64,000 bases of DNA from a virus, in IMG/VR virus record IMGVR_UViG_3300034520_000378; one strand, written 5' to 3'. The notes under the pieces are model-generated. The model searched no databases. It was not told the origin of the DNA and saw nothing but the letters and a program-made list of their open reading frames with translations. Both the position numbers and the translations under genes were made by a program. Of this stretch, positions 48,135 to 63,385 are shown in pieces; position 1 is the first letter of the stretch; the number at the start of each line of letters is the position of its first letter.

Positions 48135-48211
48135 GGCGGAGTAGCTCAATCAGGCAGAGCAGCAGTCTCCAAAACTGCCGGCTGCGGGTTCAAGTCCCGC
48201 CTCCCCCGCCA
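48135..48211 (+). tRNA. tRNA-Trp (CCA)
   Basis: cloverleaf: anticodon arm GCAGT-CTCCAAA-ACTGC, T arm GCGGG-TTCAAGT-CCCGC, G73, encoded CCA. Confidence 0.92.
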
Positions 48212-50237: not shown

Positions 50238-53200
50238 GTGTTGCCGATACTCTATGTCCCGACCCACGTCCATACCGCATTCAGCGTCCTCGATGGCCTC
50301 GCCAAGACTGAAGATCTGGTTGCCAAGGCAAAAGAGTTCGGCATGCCAGCCATTGCGGTGACGGACCATCGCAACACCGCTGCGCATGTGAAGTTCTACA
50401 GGGTATGTCAGGAGGCGGAAATAAAACCCCTGCTCGGCGTTGAGCTGAATGAAGCTGACGACAGGCTGCTGCACTCCCGTAAAGCGCGTCAGGAAAGAGG
50501 CTACGATGACTACCACATCATCATGATTGCCAAGAACCAGGAAGGCTACAAAAACCTCATGGAGATAGTCTCGGACGCCTCTACTGCGGGCTACTTTGAC
50601 AAGACCGAGCAGACAGACATGACGGTCCTCCGCGAGCGCGGCAGGGGAATTATAGCCACTTCGGCGTGCCTGGCCGGCCGCATCCCGCGGTACATCCTCC
50701 AAAACAGGCTGGACGATGCCGAGCGATGGATATCCGACTTCAAGGAAGTCTTCGACCAGTTCTATCTGGAGATTCAGCCAAACTCCCTGCCGGAGCAGGC
50801 TGTAGTAAACGAAGCGCTCATTCAGCTTGCACGCAAGACGAACACGCCGCTCATTCTTGGCACTGACGTGCACTATGTGAACCGCGAGGACGCCTTTGCA
50901 CAGGACATTCTATTGTGTATCCAGACAGGCAAGAAGCTCAAAGACCAGGATCGTCTCAAGTTCAACGGAGATCCGGACTACTACATGTGGTCGCCGGAGG
51001 AGATAGACAAGTGGATTGCCGCCTCTTCCCTGCCTCATGATGCTCTGTATGAAGCTGTAGAGAACACTCTACGCGTTGCCGAAGAATGCGACGTCACACT
51101 GGATCTTGGCACGCACAAGATGCCAACGTTCAAGACACCGGACGGCTCAACGCCTGAAGACTATCTTACACGCATCTGCTACACCGAACTTGACCGCAGG
51201 TTTGCCGATCACCCCGATTACGGCACATACAAGGCACGGCTTGAGATGGAGCTGTCTGTCATAATTCCCAAAGGCTTTGCGAGCTACTTCCTCATACTGC
51301 AGGATATCCTGGACTACTGCAGACGTCAGGGTATACCGCGTGGCGGTGGGCGCGGCAGTGCGGCGGGATGCTTCGTAGCTTACCTGCTTGGGATAACAAC
51401 AATAGATCCGATACAGAACGGTCTATTGTTCGAGCGTTAGAGGATAGCGCTCGTTAAACTGGGTGAATTCGGGGAAACTCCCTTTAGGGACAACCCCGAG
51501 CCGAGCCTGGCCGGGCCCGGCGCAAGCCGGTGGTAGCCAGGAAGGTGTAGAGGCCAGCGGCTGAGTCCCAACGATAATGCCGCCACGAGCGCCCGGCACC
51601 GGAGTCCTCCGGTGATGATATGGTCCGACCTGCCTGGCAACAGGCAGAACCAGGAGATAAAAAGCTCCTGGGATAACATAAGTGTTCCTCAACCCCGAGC
51701 GCGTGAGCTTGCCCGACATTGATGTGGATATCAGTCACGAGCGTCGCGATGAGGTTATAGCCTACGTCCGCCAGACATACGGCCACGTTGCCCAAATAGC
51801 CACCTATTCCCTACTCCATCCCAAGAGTGCCGTCCGTGACATATGTCGCGTACTGGATCTTTCCTATTCTTATGCTGACATGCTCTCCAAGCTGGTGCCC
51901 GAGAAGATGCCAGACCAGTCCGAGGTAACGCTTGAGAAGTTCCTGCTCCCCGTAAACGACTTTGACAAGGCTGCCGAGAAGTGGGGACCGGCCGAGGCAA
52001 AAGCAATCAAGGCACAGGCCGAGCAGTTCCTCAAGGAAGCGCAGAAGCACCCGGAGATTATGAACATCCTCCACAAGATAGAAGGCTGTGTCCGCTCTGT
52101 AGGAATACACGCTGGTGGCGTCCTCATAGCTCCCACGGAGCTTACGGACTACTGCAGCCTTATTGCTTCTCCGGGCAAGGTCGTCTGTTCGCTCGATATG
52201 GAGGATGTCGATGTCTACGGCCTGCTGAAAGTCGACCTTCTCGGCTTAAAGACGGTGTCTATCATTTATCGAACAGCAGAAAGAGTTGGCGTTGACATAG
52301 ACAGTGTGCCGCTAGATGATCCTGCTGTCTACGAGCTCTACCAGAACGGTCAGACCCACGGTATATTCCAGCTGTCCGGTGATGGTATCACGAGGTATGC
52401 CAAGGAGGTGAAGCCGCGAGAGTTCTCGGACCTGGTTGACATATTGGCCCTTGCCTAGGTGGTAGGGGGCCGTTAAAGCGGGTAATATGCTGGGACGCCC
52501 TTAGAGTCCAACCGACGATACCGACCGGTGACGGATCGGCGACCCGTAAAACTGGTTGGAATTGGGCAATCAGCAGGCAAAGTACTGAGTCAGTCAGTAC
52601 TGGCCTCAGAGACTGCGGAGTATTCCGGCTCATGATTGGTGACAATCATGAGTATCCCCGCTAGGCCTCTAAGGAGGCCGAATGATACAGTCCGAACCCT
52701 AGGCGAAAGCTTAGGGAGTCAGGCAGAAATGACCTGACCTTCCAGGGCCATAGCTAGGCGTTGTCTAAGCCATTCTTCAGTTATTGGTTCATCGTACCGT
52801 ATAACTAACAGTTTTAATCCATGGGCACTAATTAGTTTCTGCTTAATATAGTCCCGATACTTTCTGACCTTGAACTTCTCTAGCTCGTCTTCACCGAAGC
52901 GTTCTGTTTGCGGTATATAGTGTTGCTCACCATTGTACTCTATGCATAGTTTATAGGCTGGAAAGTAAGCATCAACATAGAGCTTACGTCCCGTTTTAGG
53001 GTTAACTAGCCATGGAAATGACTTCTCCAGGATATAGGTGCTATTGAGAATCTTGGCTATTTTCTCTATAATGATTCGCGCTGTTACTGGATTGCCTGGT
53101 ATTCGATCTTCTAGTCCGGCAGCTCTGTAAGCATTATTAAGAGAGCCGAATCTGCGCATGAATGTCTCAACTGAGTAGCGTGATGCCTCCTTAATGACCT

Positions 53201-56200
53201 TGTGAGAAACATACCCGTATTCGTCTTTGAGTCGTCTTAGCTCTTCAAGGAGGTGTTCTTCAGGAATGTTTATCTCACAGTTGATGGGTAGCCCAAGTTC
53301 TCTAAGCATGTTGTTAAAGCTTCCAAACAGGCGCTCTATAGGTTTGCGTGAATACTTGCCTTCTCGTAGATAGAGTTCTTTGGTGATGCGACCATGCTCC
53401 CTAAAGACTCTTAGGACGTCTTCAACTAGTTCTTCTCTTGTAATTGGCGTGGCCCTGTGAGACGCTTCTTTATGCGGCTCGAGACCAAGAAGGCGGTAGA
53501 CGTTTAGAAGTGATCCAAAGTGATCCTTATATGCCGTAGGTCCAAACCGCCCATGGTTGGCGATTATCTGATTGGTTACCTTACCGAATAGTTCGTAAAG
53601 CCGCAGGAATTCTTGTAGCAACTCTTCGTCGCTTATCTTTCCTTTATGCGGTGTTCTCACAGGACTCCGCCAGTTACGAGTTGAGATCCGTTTACTATCC
53701 TGTTTGTTAAGTTTAAGTTCTTCTGCAAGGCGCTTTATACCTCCGTACTTCTTCACTTGATAATACGTAAGTACGGGATGCTTCTGAATAAGCTCTTTGC
53801 TGATGTGCCCATGGGACTTGTAGATCTCATACAGATACCTGAGGACTTCTTCGCGAGTCATACCGTACTATACCTCCCATTGGTATTCTCATGGAGGTAT
53901 AGTACCTGGAACAAAACGTTCACATTGCCTAGCTATACCTGGATGTAACATAAAGCTACCGTCCAGGCCCACTCGACGCCGTAGTAGAAACAGGGCGCAC
54001 CATTGCAGAACAGTATATCTACAATCGTGAGCATCCAGATGAGATAACCTACCCGCACCCGGATTTGGAGGATATACTGAGGCCGACATACGGCGTTATG
54101 ATATACCAGGAGCAGGTGACTTCGTCGCCTGGCAGATACAGAAATGTATCTGCGTAGAACCGGGCAAAATCGGCGGAGCCAACATACCGTATCGTTTAGC
54201 AGGAGGAAAACGATATGTCCAAGAGCGCTTGTCATGACCCCGTCCGAGAGCAAGCAGTTGCATTATACAGCCAGGGATTACTTATTCGTGAAGTTGCCGA
54301 ACTGTTATCCCTTAAGCCCAGTACTGTCCAGTCGTGGATATCTAAGGCTGGTATAAGCAGACATCGTGGTCCCGCTTCTGGCGTGGTTAACGAAGATTAC
54401 TTCGATTACATTGATACAGAAGACAAAGCTTACTGGCTTGGTTGGCTTATGGCTGACAGCTGTATTAGCGTCTACAACGGACAGTACTCTCTTAAGATTC
54501 ACATAGCCATTGAAGATAGGATACTCATTGATACGTTTCTAAGGTTTATTAGATCAAGCAATAAGCCATGCATCAAGCAGTACCGAGGATGTACTTCATA
54601 CTACGTTAGTTTGACATCGCGCCACATGGTTGAGGCTCTAATAAGACATGGTGTAGTCCAAGGTAAATCGGCGCGTTGTTCTATTCCAGATATACCGCAA
54701 GACCTTGTTAGACATTTTGTACGCGGTTATTTTGATGGAGACGGTACGATTGAGACACGTGGCAAACGACGCAGGGCAGGGATAACAGGACATCCGCTTT
54801 TGCTTGAGCAAATTTTAGACATGATCATCCAGTCACACCCGTTAGAACGGTGTCCTAAAATATATCCTTCAACCGGAACATCTTACTTTCTCATTAGTAG
54901 GCGCCATGATTTAGAGATGTTTTATGACTATCTGTATGGAGATGCAACTATATGGCTTCCCAGGAAGCGCGATGCTTTTGTTGAAGCTCTTGGGCGTGGC
55001 AACGCCGAGGTAACCATCTAGCCTAAAAACAAGATGGCACCGTAACGCATAGAGGGTGAACCTGTGAGCACGAAATGTGCTCACAGAATATAATCCCTCC
55101 ACGAGTGTCCGGCACCCAAACCGTAAAGGTCGGTGGGTGAAAACGTATGCTGACCTGTGCCGAGTGGTATGGTAGGCACAGAACTAGAGGATAAAAAGCC
55201 TCTAGGGTAACAAAGTGGATGAACATTGCTAAGAAGCTTGCGGGCTACACTCTAGGTCAAGCGGACGCCCTAAGAAAACTTATAGCCAAAAAGAAGCTTG
55301 ATGAGCTTCCTGCAGCTCGTGCACAATTTGTCCAGGGCGGCGTAGCAAATGGTTATCCTGAAGAGCTGATGAACCAGCTCTTCGACCAAATAGAGAAGTT
55401 CGGTGGGTTGACAGAACAGCCCCCGTGCGGAGCAATCCGCACGTGCAAACCGGGTGAATTCAGGGGAAGCCTGAGATGGTCACCCTGAGCCAAGCCCAGC
55501 CAGGGGCCCGATGGATAATCGGTGGCGGCTGGGAAGGTGCAACGACCAGGACGTGCGTCCCCGACAATAAGCGTTCCTCGAGCGCCCGGCATCCCTCTGG
55601 GATGATGATATGGTCTAGCCCAACGGGAAATGAACCGTTGGTAGGAGCGATGCCTTCAACAAGTCCCATTCCGCAGCGTACGCATACCTGTCATACCAAA
55701 CGGCCTATCTCAAAGCACATTACCCGGTAGAGTTCATGGCCGAGTTGATGTCAAGCGATGTGGACAATCCCGATAAGCTGCTGGAGCACGTACAGGAGTG
55801 CCGCAAGATGGGCATCCCGCTGCTCCCGGTAGACGTAAACCACAGTAAAGCGGAGTTCTCCATTGAGACTGTTGACATTGCAGGCCGCCCGGTCAAGGCA
55901 ATCAGGTACGCCTTAACCGGTATCAAGACCATAGGCCGCAGTGTAGCTGACGAGATTGTAGCGCACCAGCCGTACGAGTCGTTTGAAGACTTCGTGCAGA
56001 AGGTGCGCGGGCGGACGGTACACAAGAAGGTCATGCGCACGCTTATCCTTGCCGGTCTGTTTGACTGCTTTAAACCAAACAGGTACGCTCTTCTGCACAA
56101 GTACTACTTTGTGCTACGCAGAGAAAAGCCTGATGATGTCGACTGTCCTGATCCGGCTACATGGAGTGATTCAGCTAAATATAGTCTTGATCAAGAGTCT

Positions 56201-56623
56201 TACGGTTTTGCGCTGTCTGGCCATCCTGCAGAATCGTATCCATGTCACTATCCACCTGCTGTACCGTACGATAGGCCGTTCTACATTTCCGGAGTTATCA
56301 CTGACGTAATCGTGGACAAGGACAAGCAGGGGCGGCAGATGGCCAAGGTGCGGCTCGATACGCCATTTGGTCTGTATGCCATAAGATTCTACTACCGCCA
56401 GTGGCAGCGCTACAGGTCGCTCGTCAATCAGATACGTCAGCTCGACCTGCCGCTTGTCACCATCAAGGTTAGGAAGACACGGTACATGTCACATGACATC
56501 ATCGAAGCGGTCCATGTGCTTGTGCCAGAGGAAGCACAGCGGATGTGGCAGGAGTATCTTGACAGCTGCTTTAACGTTCACACGGTCCTGCGCTCGAGCC
56601 GCCTTGTGCGATTCTACGCGTGA
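50238..56623 (+). CDS. dnaE: DNA polymerase III alpha, five exons: 50238-51437, 51685-52451, 53956-54117, 55218-55408, 55650-56623 (1097 aa spliced)
   Basis: PHP motifs, GRGSAAG, FER|FLNPER..PDIDVD, AL|YRPGP, YQEQV|M, GY|AFNKSH all restored; exon total 3294 nt in frame. Confidence 0.95.
51438..51684 (+). ncRNA. group I intron 1 in dnaE (ORF-less, 247 nt)
   Basis: exon ends in U, intron ends in G; P1 GAGCGU/GCGCUC; core GAAUUCGGGGAA..CCCCGAGCC..AGAGGCCA..GAUAUGGUCC. Confidence 0.9.
52452..53955 (+). ncRNA. group I intron 2 in dnaE (1504 nt) with antisense ORF
   Basis: P1 GGCCCU/GGGGCC; P AUGCUGGGA, Q AAUCAGCAGG, R UCAGAGACUG, S GAUACAGUCC; terminal G. Confidence 0.9.
52719..53861 (-). CDS. 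putative homing endonuclease: tandem helical repeats plus C-terminal Vsr-like PD-(D/E)xK domain
   Basis: four ~65-aa repeats (FGS..N...LGL); [19 protein letters not shown]; GGGAGG RBS. Confidence 0.8.
   Translation of the reverse strand: MTREEVLRYLYEIYKSHGHISKELIQKHPVLTYYQVKKYGGIKRLAEELKLNKQDSKRISTRNWRSPVRTPHKGKISDEELLQEFLRLYELFGKVTNQIIANHGRFGPTAYKDHFGSLLNVYRLLGLEPHKEASHRATPITREELVEDVLRVFREHGRITKELYLREGKYSRKPIERLFGSFNNMLRELGLPINCEINIPEEHLLEELRRLKDEYGYVSHKVIKEASRYSVETFMRRFGSLNNAYRAAGLEDRIPGNPVTARIIIEKIAKILNSTYILEKSFPWLVNPKTGRKLYVDAYFPAYKLCIEYNGEQHYIPQTERFGEDELEKFKVRKYRDYIKQKLISAHGLKLLVIRYDEPITEEWLRQRLAMALEGQVISA
54118..55217 (+). ncRNA. group I intron 3 in dnaE (1100 nt) with LAGLIDADG ORF
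   Basis: P1 CAGGU/GCCUG; AAAAUCGGCGGA..ACGCCGAGG..AACGCAUA..CGUAUGCUG core; 3' hairpin shared with intron 1; terminal G. Confidence 0.9.
54215..55021 (+). CDS. LAGLIDADG homing endonuclease with N-terminal HTH
   Basis: [12 protein letters not shown] and [11 protein letters not shown] motifs. Confidence 0.88.
   Translation: MSKSACHDPVREQAVALYSQGLLIREVAELLSLKPSTVQSWISKAGISRHRGPASGVVNEDYFDYIDTEDKAYWLGWLMADSCISVYNGQYSLKIHIAIEDRILIDTFLRFIRSSNKPCIKQYRGCTSYYVSLTSRHMVEALIRHGVVQGKSARCSIPDIPQDLVRHFVRGYFDGDGTIETRGKRRRAGITGHPLLLEQILDMIIQSHPLERCPKIYPSTGTSYFLISRRHDLEMFYDYLYGDATIWLPRKRDAFVEALGRGNAEVTI
55409..55649 (+). ncRNA. group I intron 4 in dnaE (ORF-less, 241 nt)
   Basis: P1 GGGU/GCCC; core similar to intron 1 (GGGUGAAUUC, GAGCGCCCGGCA, GAUAUGGUC); terminal G. 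Confidence 0.9.
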
Positions 56624-63102: not shown

Positions 63103-63385
63103 GTCAACCACCCCCGACTGAAGTCGGAGACATGTAGGCCTCGTGGTTGACCAGCCTGAGTACCTGACCCGAAGGACAAGGGGATGATGGTACTACGTTG
63201 GCAGCAGGTCAAAGACCCACTCCGGGATGCTCCTCCAGTCCCGGACTCTGGAAGTGCCGGTTGCAGACAACCTTCGGGGTGTGGGCGAAACGGACCGGCA
63301 CAAGTGCCGGTTGCCAACATTGGCGAGGAGGGCGCCGGGGAGAGTCCGCCCCGGCGCGTCACCAGGCCCGTAAGGGTACTCCGAA
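63103..63385 (+). ncRNA. omega-RNA (HEARO-type) scaffold of IscB element; 3' limit approximate
   Basis: GTCAACCACCCC..GGTTGACCAGCCTGAG..CTACGTT..GGATGCTCCTCCAGTCC..AACATTGGCGAGG directly before iscB. Confidence 0.85.

Follow-up and report, generated by a model that had tools for sequence, protein, structure and literature searches.

Group I introns are well documented in phage replication genes, among them the DNA polymerase genes of SPO1/SP82 and Bastille, nrdE of Twort, and td, nrdB and nrdD of T4 (PMC3984707). They occupy conserved motifs of DNA-metabolism genes, some with an endonuclease gene in a peripheral loop and some bare, and a single gene may hold several of them. Twort orf142 reportedly contains three. 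The locus described here, in the 64,000-nucleotide (nt) viral record IMGVR_UViG_3300034520_000378 (the whole of which we call the window), is alike in all these respects, but its host gene is the C-family polymerase gene dnaE, it has four introns, and one of the endonuclease genes lies antisense. We infer, with a probability of about 0.9, that this is one dnaE gene read as a ~6.4-kb precursor and that its four group I introns are selfish mobile elements; splicing, the activity and target of the endonucleases, and mobility enter this reading as predictions. Elements of this kind are familiar and intron-rich huge phages have been published; a load of four introns in one dnaE is unusually high, and a full-text literature search turned up no publication on such introns in dnaE.

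Three described systems resemble parts of the locus. In the large genomes of Jug phages, essential genes, DNA polymerase genes included, are broken by numerous short group I introns and endonuclease genes, and about half of the predicted introns were confirmed as spliced by metatranscriptome reads (PMC12880540). They are Bacteroides gut phages, whereas the window DnaE groups with phages of Firmicutes and the splicing of its introns is predicted from sequence. I-Bth0305I, a Vsr-like 'EDxHD' homing endonuclease, is encoded by a group I intron that interrupts recA of Bacillus phage 0305phi8-36 (PMC3239194, PMC2677866). The protein encoded in the second window intron is likewise intron-encoded and multidomain and comes from a replication/recombination gene of a jumbo Bacillus-type phage; in its C-terminal nuclease-like module an acidic residue precedes a motif of the E..G..H type, a resemblance in pattern. 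The I-Bth0305I gene lies in the P1 loop, whereas the window gene lies in L9.2 on the antisense strand, and this antisense cassette is the most distinctive detail of the locus. Finally, the cyanobacterial split DnaE intein (Ssp/Npu; extein flanks KFAEY | CFNKS) sits in the same DnaE motif as the fourth window intron. The sequence-only reading had made the two positions coincide; they share the motif and fall within one codon, but the intron interrupts the Tyr codon of GGY|AFNKSH, and the Ssp split intein sits at a codon boundary 2 nt away (here and below a vertical stroke marks an insertion point). In the window, RNA would be spliced from one gene, whereas in cyanobacteria protein is trans-spliced from two.

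The program-made list of open reading frames (ORFs) for the window holds four DnaE-like fragments (50238-51440, 51682-52458, 55219-55488 and 55736-56623). Exon 3 is not among them; it has no start codon and is open over 54 codons in the phase carried from exon 2. When the five exons of this jumbo-phage dnaE (Table 1) are joined, they form 3294 nt encoding 1097 amino acids (aa), with the sole stop codon at the end and the four cuts in codon phases 0, 2, 2 and 1. Pfam coordinates run on across the junctions, from exon 1 to exon 2 for DNA_pol3_alpha and over exons 2, 3 and 4 for the finger domain. The joined protein is 40% identical over its full length to the uninterrupted DnaE of Moorella phage MTATph1, and the alignment is gapless at all four junctions. 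The last base of every 5' exon is a U, which pairs in P1 with a G of the internal guide sequence a short way downstream, and the introns all terminate in omega-G. At sites 1 to 4 the insertion motifs are FER|FLNPER, AL|YRPGP, YQEQV|M and GGY|AFNKSH, which are near-invariant in phage and bacterial DnaE. The sequence-only reading had anticipated this gene model, and it was borne out in every one of its four intron and five exon intervals, in the U.G pair and terminal G at each site, in the length and frame of the product with its unlisted third exon, and in the placing of the sites inside the most conserved motifs. This DnaE-type polymerase gene is the only replicative polymerase gene visible for the phage. 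Megablast of the whole locus against GenBank phages gave no match. Inteins were rejected on account of in-frame stops after each exon, and group II introns within the window were rejected for want of an RF00029 or RF02004 match.

The exact junctions can be read against a relative in which three of the sites are empty. L003, a 27-kb metagenomic phage contig and the nearest relative found, has the same gene order as the window (an unnamed ORF upstream of dnaE, HU-like and SSB genes downstream), and its DnaE is 68% identical to that of the window over exon 1 and 63% over the remainder. Its dnaE is broken at site 1 only; the second ORF (708 aa) runs uninterrupted through sites 2, 3 and 4, and the joined window protein aligns to it with no gaps at the junctions. 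In the DNA itself, the predicted ligated junctions are contiguous in L003 over 26 nt at site 2, 15/15 nt at site 3 and 33/36 nt at site 4. Short of complementary DNA, this contiguity is the strongest evidence for the exact predicted junctions.

Table 1. Coordinates of the interrupted dnaE of the window and of related features in other contigs
Feature	Location	Strand	Remarks
dnaE exon 1	50238-51437	+	PHP domain and start of pol III alpha domain, ends ..LLFER; Pfam PHP 153.8 bits, DNA_pol3_alpha 1-92
Intron 1	51438-51684	+	247 nt, no ORF; RF00028 66.0 bits; omega-G 51684
dnaE exon 2	51685-52451	+	FLNPER..PDIDVD catalytic motif..DILAL; DNA_pol3_alpha 93-260, finger domain 13-72
Intron 2	52452-53955	+	1504 nt; core P1-P9.1 at 52452-52738; 19-nt tail ending in omega-G 53955
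Predicted homing-endonuclease gene of intron 2	52719-53861	-	380 aa; Pfam HNH_repeat (PF18780) 104.9 bits
dnaE exon 3	53956-54117	+	162 nt; finger-domain profile 74-120; contiguous in L003
Intron 3	54118-55217	+	1100 nt, group I, ORF in L5; P1 CAGGU/GCCUG; omega-G 55217
LAGLIDADG homing-endonuclease gene of intron 3	54215-55021	+	268 aa, N-terminal helix-turn-helix; LAGLIDADG_3 34.4 bits (cut-off 22.5), HTH families
dnaE exon 4	55218-55408	+	191 nt; finger-domain profile 122-166
Intron 4	55409-55649	+	241 nt, no ORF; RF00028 64.7 bits; U.G at 55408; omega-G 55649
dnaE exon 5	55650-56623	+	HHH_6 domain (Pfam 79.9 bits), C-terminal domain, stop; aligns to end of L003 DnaE
Intron-2 endonuclease homologues in L015, L016, L018	same dnaE site, ..CCCU|(C/G)UACCG..		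endonuclease gene sense
Intron-2 endonuclease homologue in L014	5 nt downstream of site 2		different, intron-1-like intron (RF00028 59.6 bits); endonuclease gene sense
Intron-2 endonuclease homologue in L017 (1.1-kb contig)	dnaE exons not on contig		endonuclease gene antisense, as in the window
Group II introns in bacterial dnaE	L008:10038-10862, L009, L010:9930-11700, L011:4714-6115

A group I core, comprising P3-P8 with the P3/P7 pseudoknot and the P4-P6 domain, is present in introns 1, 2 and 4 by model alignment. In intron 3 it appears as complementary segments at the expected places and in the lowest-energy fold, with P7 assigned by eye. Each of the four also contains an insert between P7 and P3' of the sort found in subgroup IA. 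Two of the introns, 1 and 4, are bare ribozymes; their covariance-model scores exceed the Rfam gathering score of RF00028 (50 bits) and their matches cover the full model (1-253). Their P1 helices, CGAGCGU/GCGCUCG and GGGU/GCCC, respectively, each place the U.G pair at the 5' splice site. L003 contains the site-1 intron too; P1 is identical there and the 3' end almost so (..GGUAACAGAGUG|UUC). That copy (L003:11177-12959) is 1783 nt long and contains two LAGLIDADG genes, whereas the window copy has none. One of the two, of the LAGLIDADG_2 family, is inserted between P7 and P3'; the other, a LAGLIDADG_3 gene, occupies L8 and ends 7 nt before the 3' splice site. The same intron is also present at site 1 of a bacterial chromosomal dnaE (L007), where it scores 82.4 bits.

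We assign intron 2 to group I because it has a full-length match to RF00028, albeit one below the gathering score, because homologous site-2 introns occur in L015, L016 and L018, and because its P1 and a P9.2-like helix covary among them. P1 is GGCCCU/GGGGCC in the window and changes together with the exon in the other site-2 introns, to AAUGCCCU/GGGGCAUU in L015, GUUGCCCU/GGGGCAAC in L018 and GUCCCU/GGGGAC in L016. A 7-bp P10 can be formed with the 3' exon (UACCGUC/GGUGGUA). The P9.2-like helix pairs a segment directly 3' of P9.1 with one that lies 9-19 nt upstream of the 3' splice site in the window, L015 and L016. In the window (52750-52764 with 53922-53936) it has 14/15 pairs and closes a 1157-nt loop holding the endonuclease cassette; in L015 (15/16 pairs) and L016 (14/15 pairs) it is kept with unrelated sequence. 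In this fold, the helix loops out the cassette, whichever way round that lies, and returns the 3' splice site to the core. We had also considered the flanking inverted repeat as an inversion switch and rejected this, as the repeat is the P9.2 helix.

The antisense ORF of intron 2 encodes homing-endonuclease-associated helical repeats followed by a C-terminal nuclease-like domain, in which D..E.NG.QH..RD..K is conserved in the family alignment; this domain had no sequence match in the PDB and matched no Pfam nuclease family. Its stop codon sits in the complement of P9.1, a conserved hairpin (GUCAGGCAGAAAUGACCUGAC), and the same is true of the L017 gene. Homologues of the protein share 41-53% identity over ~300 aa, and those of L014, L015, L016 and L018 sit inside interrupted dnaE genes of large-phage contigs (Table 1). 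The cassette occurs both ways round in the same loop across phages, which hints that it might be expressed from its own promoter whatever its orientation; antisense transcription could possibly interfere with the dnaE pre-mRNA. Both ideas belong to a speculative reading, taken up below, that we think improbable. A perfect 13-bp hairpin (53865-53905) adjoins the 5' end of the antisense gene; on the minus strand its stem contains a GGAGG ribosome-binding site, and it may restrain translation of the endonuclease.

Intron 3 is assigned to group I on the basis of a profile match to its 3' half and the fold obtained with the ORF removed. A search of the window with an nhmmer profile of 3' halves, taken from introns 1 and 4 and the two L007 introns, matched 55077-55198 (E 1.1e-5), the sole additional significant match in the 64-kb window; a 5'-half profile did not find intron 3 and barely found intron 2. 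The 3' end of intron 3 (a hairpin, then GGUAACAAAGUG|) closely resembles that of intron 1, and the second L007 intron has a matching P8. Once 54186-54992 had been taken out, the lowest-energy fold contained P1, P2, P3, P4, P5, P6/P6a, P7.1/7.2, P8, P9 and P9.1. P3 (CCGGGCA/UGUCCGG) and P4 (UCGGCG/CGCCGA) of that length and in the right order were found in 1.5% of shuffles of the 5' segment. P10 is GAUGAA/UUCGUC. The ORF within this intron has two legible LAGLIDADG-type motifs, one of them ..RGYFDGDGT.., and resembles PDB entry 2dch, a 'putative homing endonuclease' (E 0.008). AGGAGG stands 8 nt ahead of its ATG, and at its 3' end the coding sequence overlaps both P5 and P4 (their 3' strands) as well as part of P6.

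Group I-type interrupted dnaE genes were found in other database contigs (L003, L007, L014, L015, L016 and L018). The dnaE of the large-phage contig L016 has four interruptions, three of them at the sites used in the window, and a 76-aa ORF that is the counterpart of window exon 4 and is likewise isolated. The load that the sequence-only reading had called unusually high is therefore high but not unique. In L007 (9159-9947), a bacterial chromosomal dnaE with murB, rapZ and whiA as neighbours, two group I introns (82.4 and 61.3 bits) flank a 33-nt mini-exon encoding FLNPERISMPD, the first of them at window site 1.

Other kinds of insertion fall close to the same motifs. ORF-less group II introns (RF02004 118-137 bits, RF00029 48-60 bits) occupy bacterial dnaE genes at YQ|EQVM and YRPGPM|, adjoining window sites 3 and 2, each within 2-6 codons. 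In L010 the beginning of dnaE (its 5' part) is followed by two RF02004 matches, so the intron at YRPGPM| may have a further group II intron behind it. The jumbo-phage dnaE of L014 is first interrupted at PD|IDVD, by a sequence in which no group I match was found and which contains a match to the 'skipping-rope' RNA (RF02924; L014:2919-3028, 36.1 bits; gathering score 36.7). In Bacillus jumbo phage vB_BauM_KLEB27-3 (OM634661; 4658-5665 of L012), dnaE is annotated as two coding sequences around an HNH endonuclease gene. Rfam gave no match on this insert. A GAUGAUAUAGUC J8/7-P7 motif stands just ahead of the second dnaE coding sequence, so the insert is probably an ORF-split group I intron; it would be an unannotated one, probably at a fifth site, GLFQIE|. 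Many bacterial DnaE fragments also share identical lengths and frameshifted-looking tails (..STHACRNCYY.., ..YNDNTRRTRF..), as in P0009, P0064, P0085 and P0104 (528 aa) and in P0011, P0040 and P0056 (561 aa), a pattern suggestive of frameshifts, or errors of assembly, that recur at set positions in dnaE.

Several observations count against the view that the window holds one dnaE with four mobile group I introns. The check with group I covariance models that the sequence-only reading had proposed succeeded for introns 1 and 4 only. Intron 2 spans the full model but, at 41.7 bits (E 3.5e-8 in a 7-kb search and 1.8e-9 in a 361-nt search), is below the gathering score. Intron 3 had no Rfam match even at E 10, which we attribute to its 807-nt ORF splitting the core at L5, and a search with its 3' part alone returned only chance-level microRNA and snoRNA matches. 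P7 (GCAUA/UAUGC) and J8/7 of intron 3 were identified by eye and are off consensus, so this intron may splice poorly or need its LAGLIDADG protein. The P10 of intron 4 is very short. Because introns 1 and 4 are without an endonuclease gene, their mobility would need co-conversion or a trans-acting enzyme. No consensus promoter was seen upstream of the antisense gene, and overall a sigma-70 scan yielded no more sites than did shuffled sequence. The unusual P7 and J8/7 of intron 3, with its missing Rfam match, would also suit a decaying pseudogene or dead introns that do not splice, in a phage that uses the host replicase, and four introns in series would multiply any inefficiency of splicing. 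We nevertheless hold this to be highly improbable: all five exons are conserved open frames free of frameshifts and internal stops, the ribozyme helices are all intact, both endonuclease ORFs are full length, and relatives retain dnaE in the same replication-gene neighbourhood. That exons 1, 2, 4 and 5 are called as separate ORFs might instead mean that the polymerase is translated as separate fragments that assemble non-covalently, with free-standing endonuclease genes and spacers between them. We give this next to no credence, given that the 54 codons of exon 3 could not be started. Exons 2 and 4 could start in frame only at their joins with the preceding introns, where there is no ribosome-binding site; the GTG of exon 2 consists of the last three bases of intron 1. 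Moreover, the group I model matches all the intervening sequences but one, and that one is a homologue of the other three; the cuts, too, fall in differing codon phases.

Active enzyme would require all four splicing events, and it is established chemistry that group I splicing needs a guanosine cofactor; the intron 3 ORF, moreover, has its ribosome-binding site in a hairpin loop. These points could be taken to mean that the introns are not neutral parasites but a regulatory gate on the replicase, tied for example to GTP, Mg2+ or translation state, and the sequence-only reading had indeed held that four splicing events gate the replicase. We found no evidence for such a gate and consider it unlikely: three of the four introns are missing from the close relative L003, related contigs differ in which introns they have, and the sequence carries no sign of regulated splicing. 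The pattern fits selfish mobile introns. Homing elements account for it better than a regulatory device because the distribution is patchy, the endonuclease genes are intact, and their G+C content (0.44-0.45) is lower than that of the exons (0.49-0.55) or the ribozyme parts (0.55-0.61).

As selfish group I introns in a single gene, the four elements would act as follows. dnaE would be transcribed as a single ~6.4-kb precursor. Because the introns belong to the group I family, each would be removed by two-step transesterification, with guanosine attack at the U.G pair and then exon ligation at the terminal G; four such rounds would leave the 3294-nt mRNA for the 1097-aa DnaE. The intron endonucleases would cut the intron-less dnaE of co-infecting relatives, for example L003-like phages with empty sites 2-4, and repair of the cut allele would copy the intron in. 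An intron endonuclease of PhiPA3 has been shown to act as a weapon against co-infecting relatives (PMC11620839). Introns 2-4 are separated by only a 162-nt and a 191-nt exon (353 nt), which makes co-conversion as a block plausible. That they form one co-converting block with two endonucleases, one antisense, wielded as a weapon against co-infecting empty-site relatives is a tentative idea that we think improbable.

Two further RNA features were recorded elsewhere in the window. A tRNA gene (RF00005, 63.2 bits) lies on the + strand at 48135-48208, ~2 kb upstream of dnaE. A HEARO RNA (RF02033) lies at 63103-63338, also on the + strand, and scores 101.2 bits (gathering score 83); HEARO is the guide-RNA scaffold of IscB/IsrB-type elements.

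With this locus, DnaE, the bacterial-type replicative polymerase, joins the host genes of mobile group I introns. FER|FLNPER, AL|YRPGP, YQEQV|M and GY|xFNKSH are shared landing sites for group I introns in phages and in a bacterial chromosome, and near the same DnaE motifs lie group II introns in bacteria and, at the fourth, the classic split intein. Annotation calls for caution, as intron-bearing dnaE genes are being deposited as 'split' polymerases, KLEB27-3 being a probable example. With their occupied and empty sites and their sense and antisense endonuclease genes, these dnaE genes are a natural allele set for homing, co-conversion and phage-phage competition.

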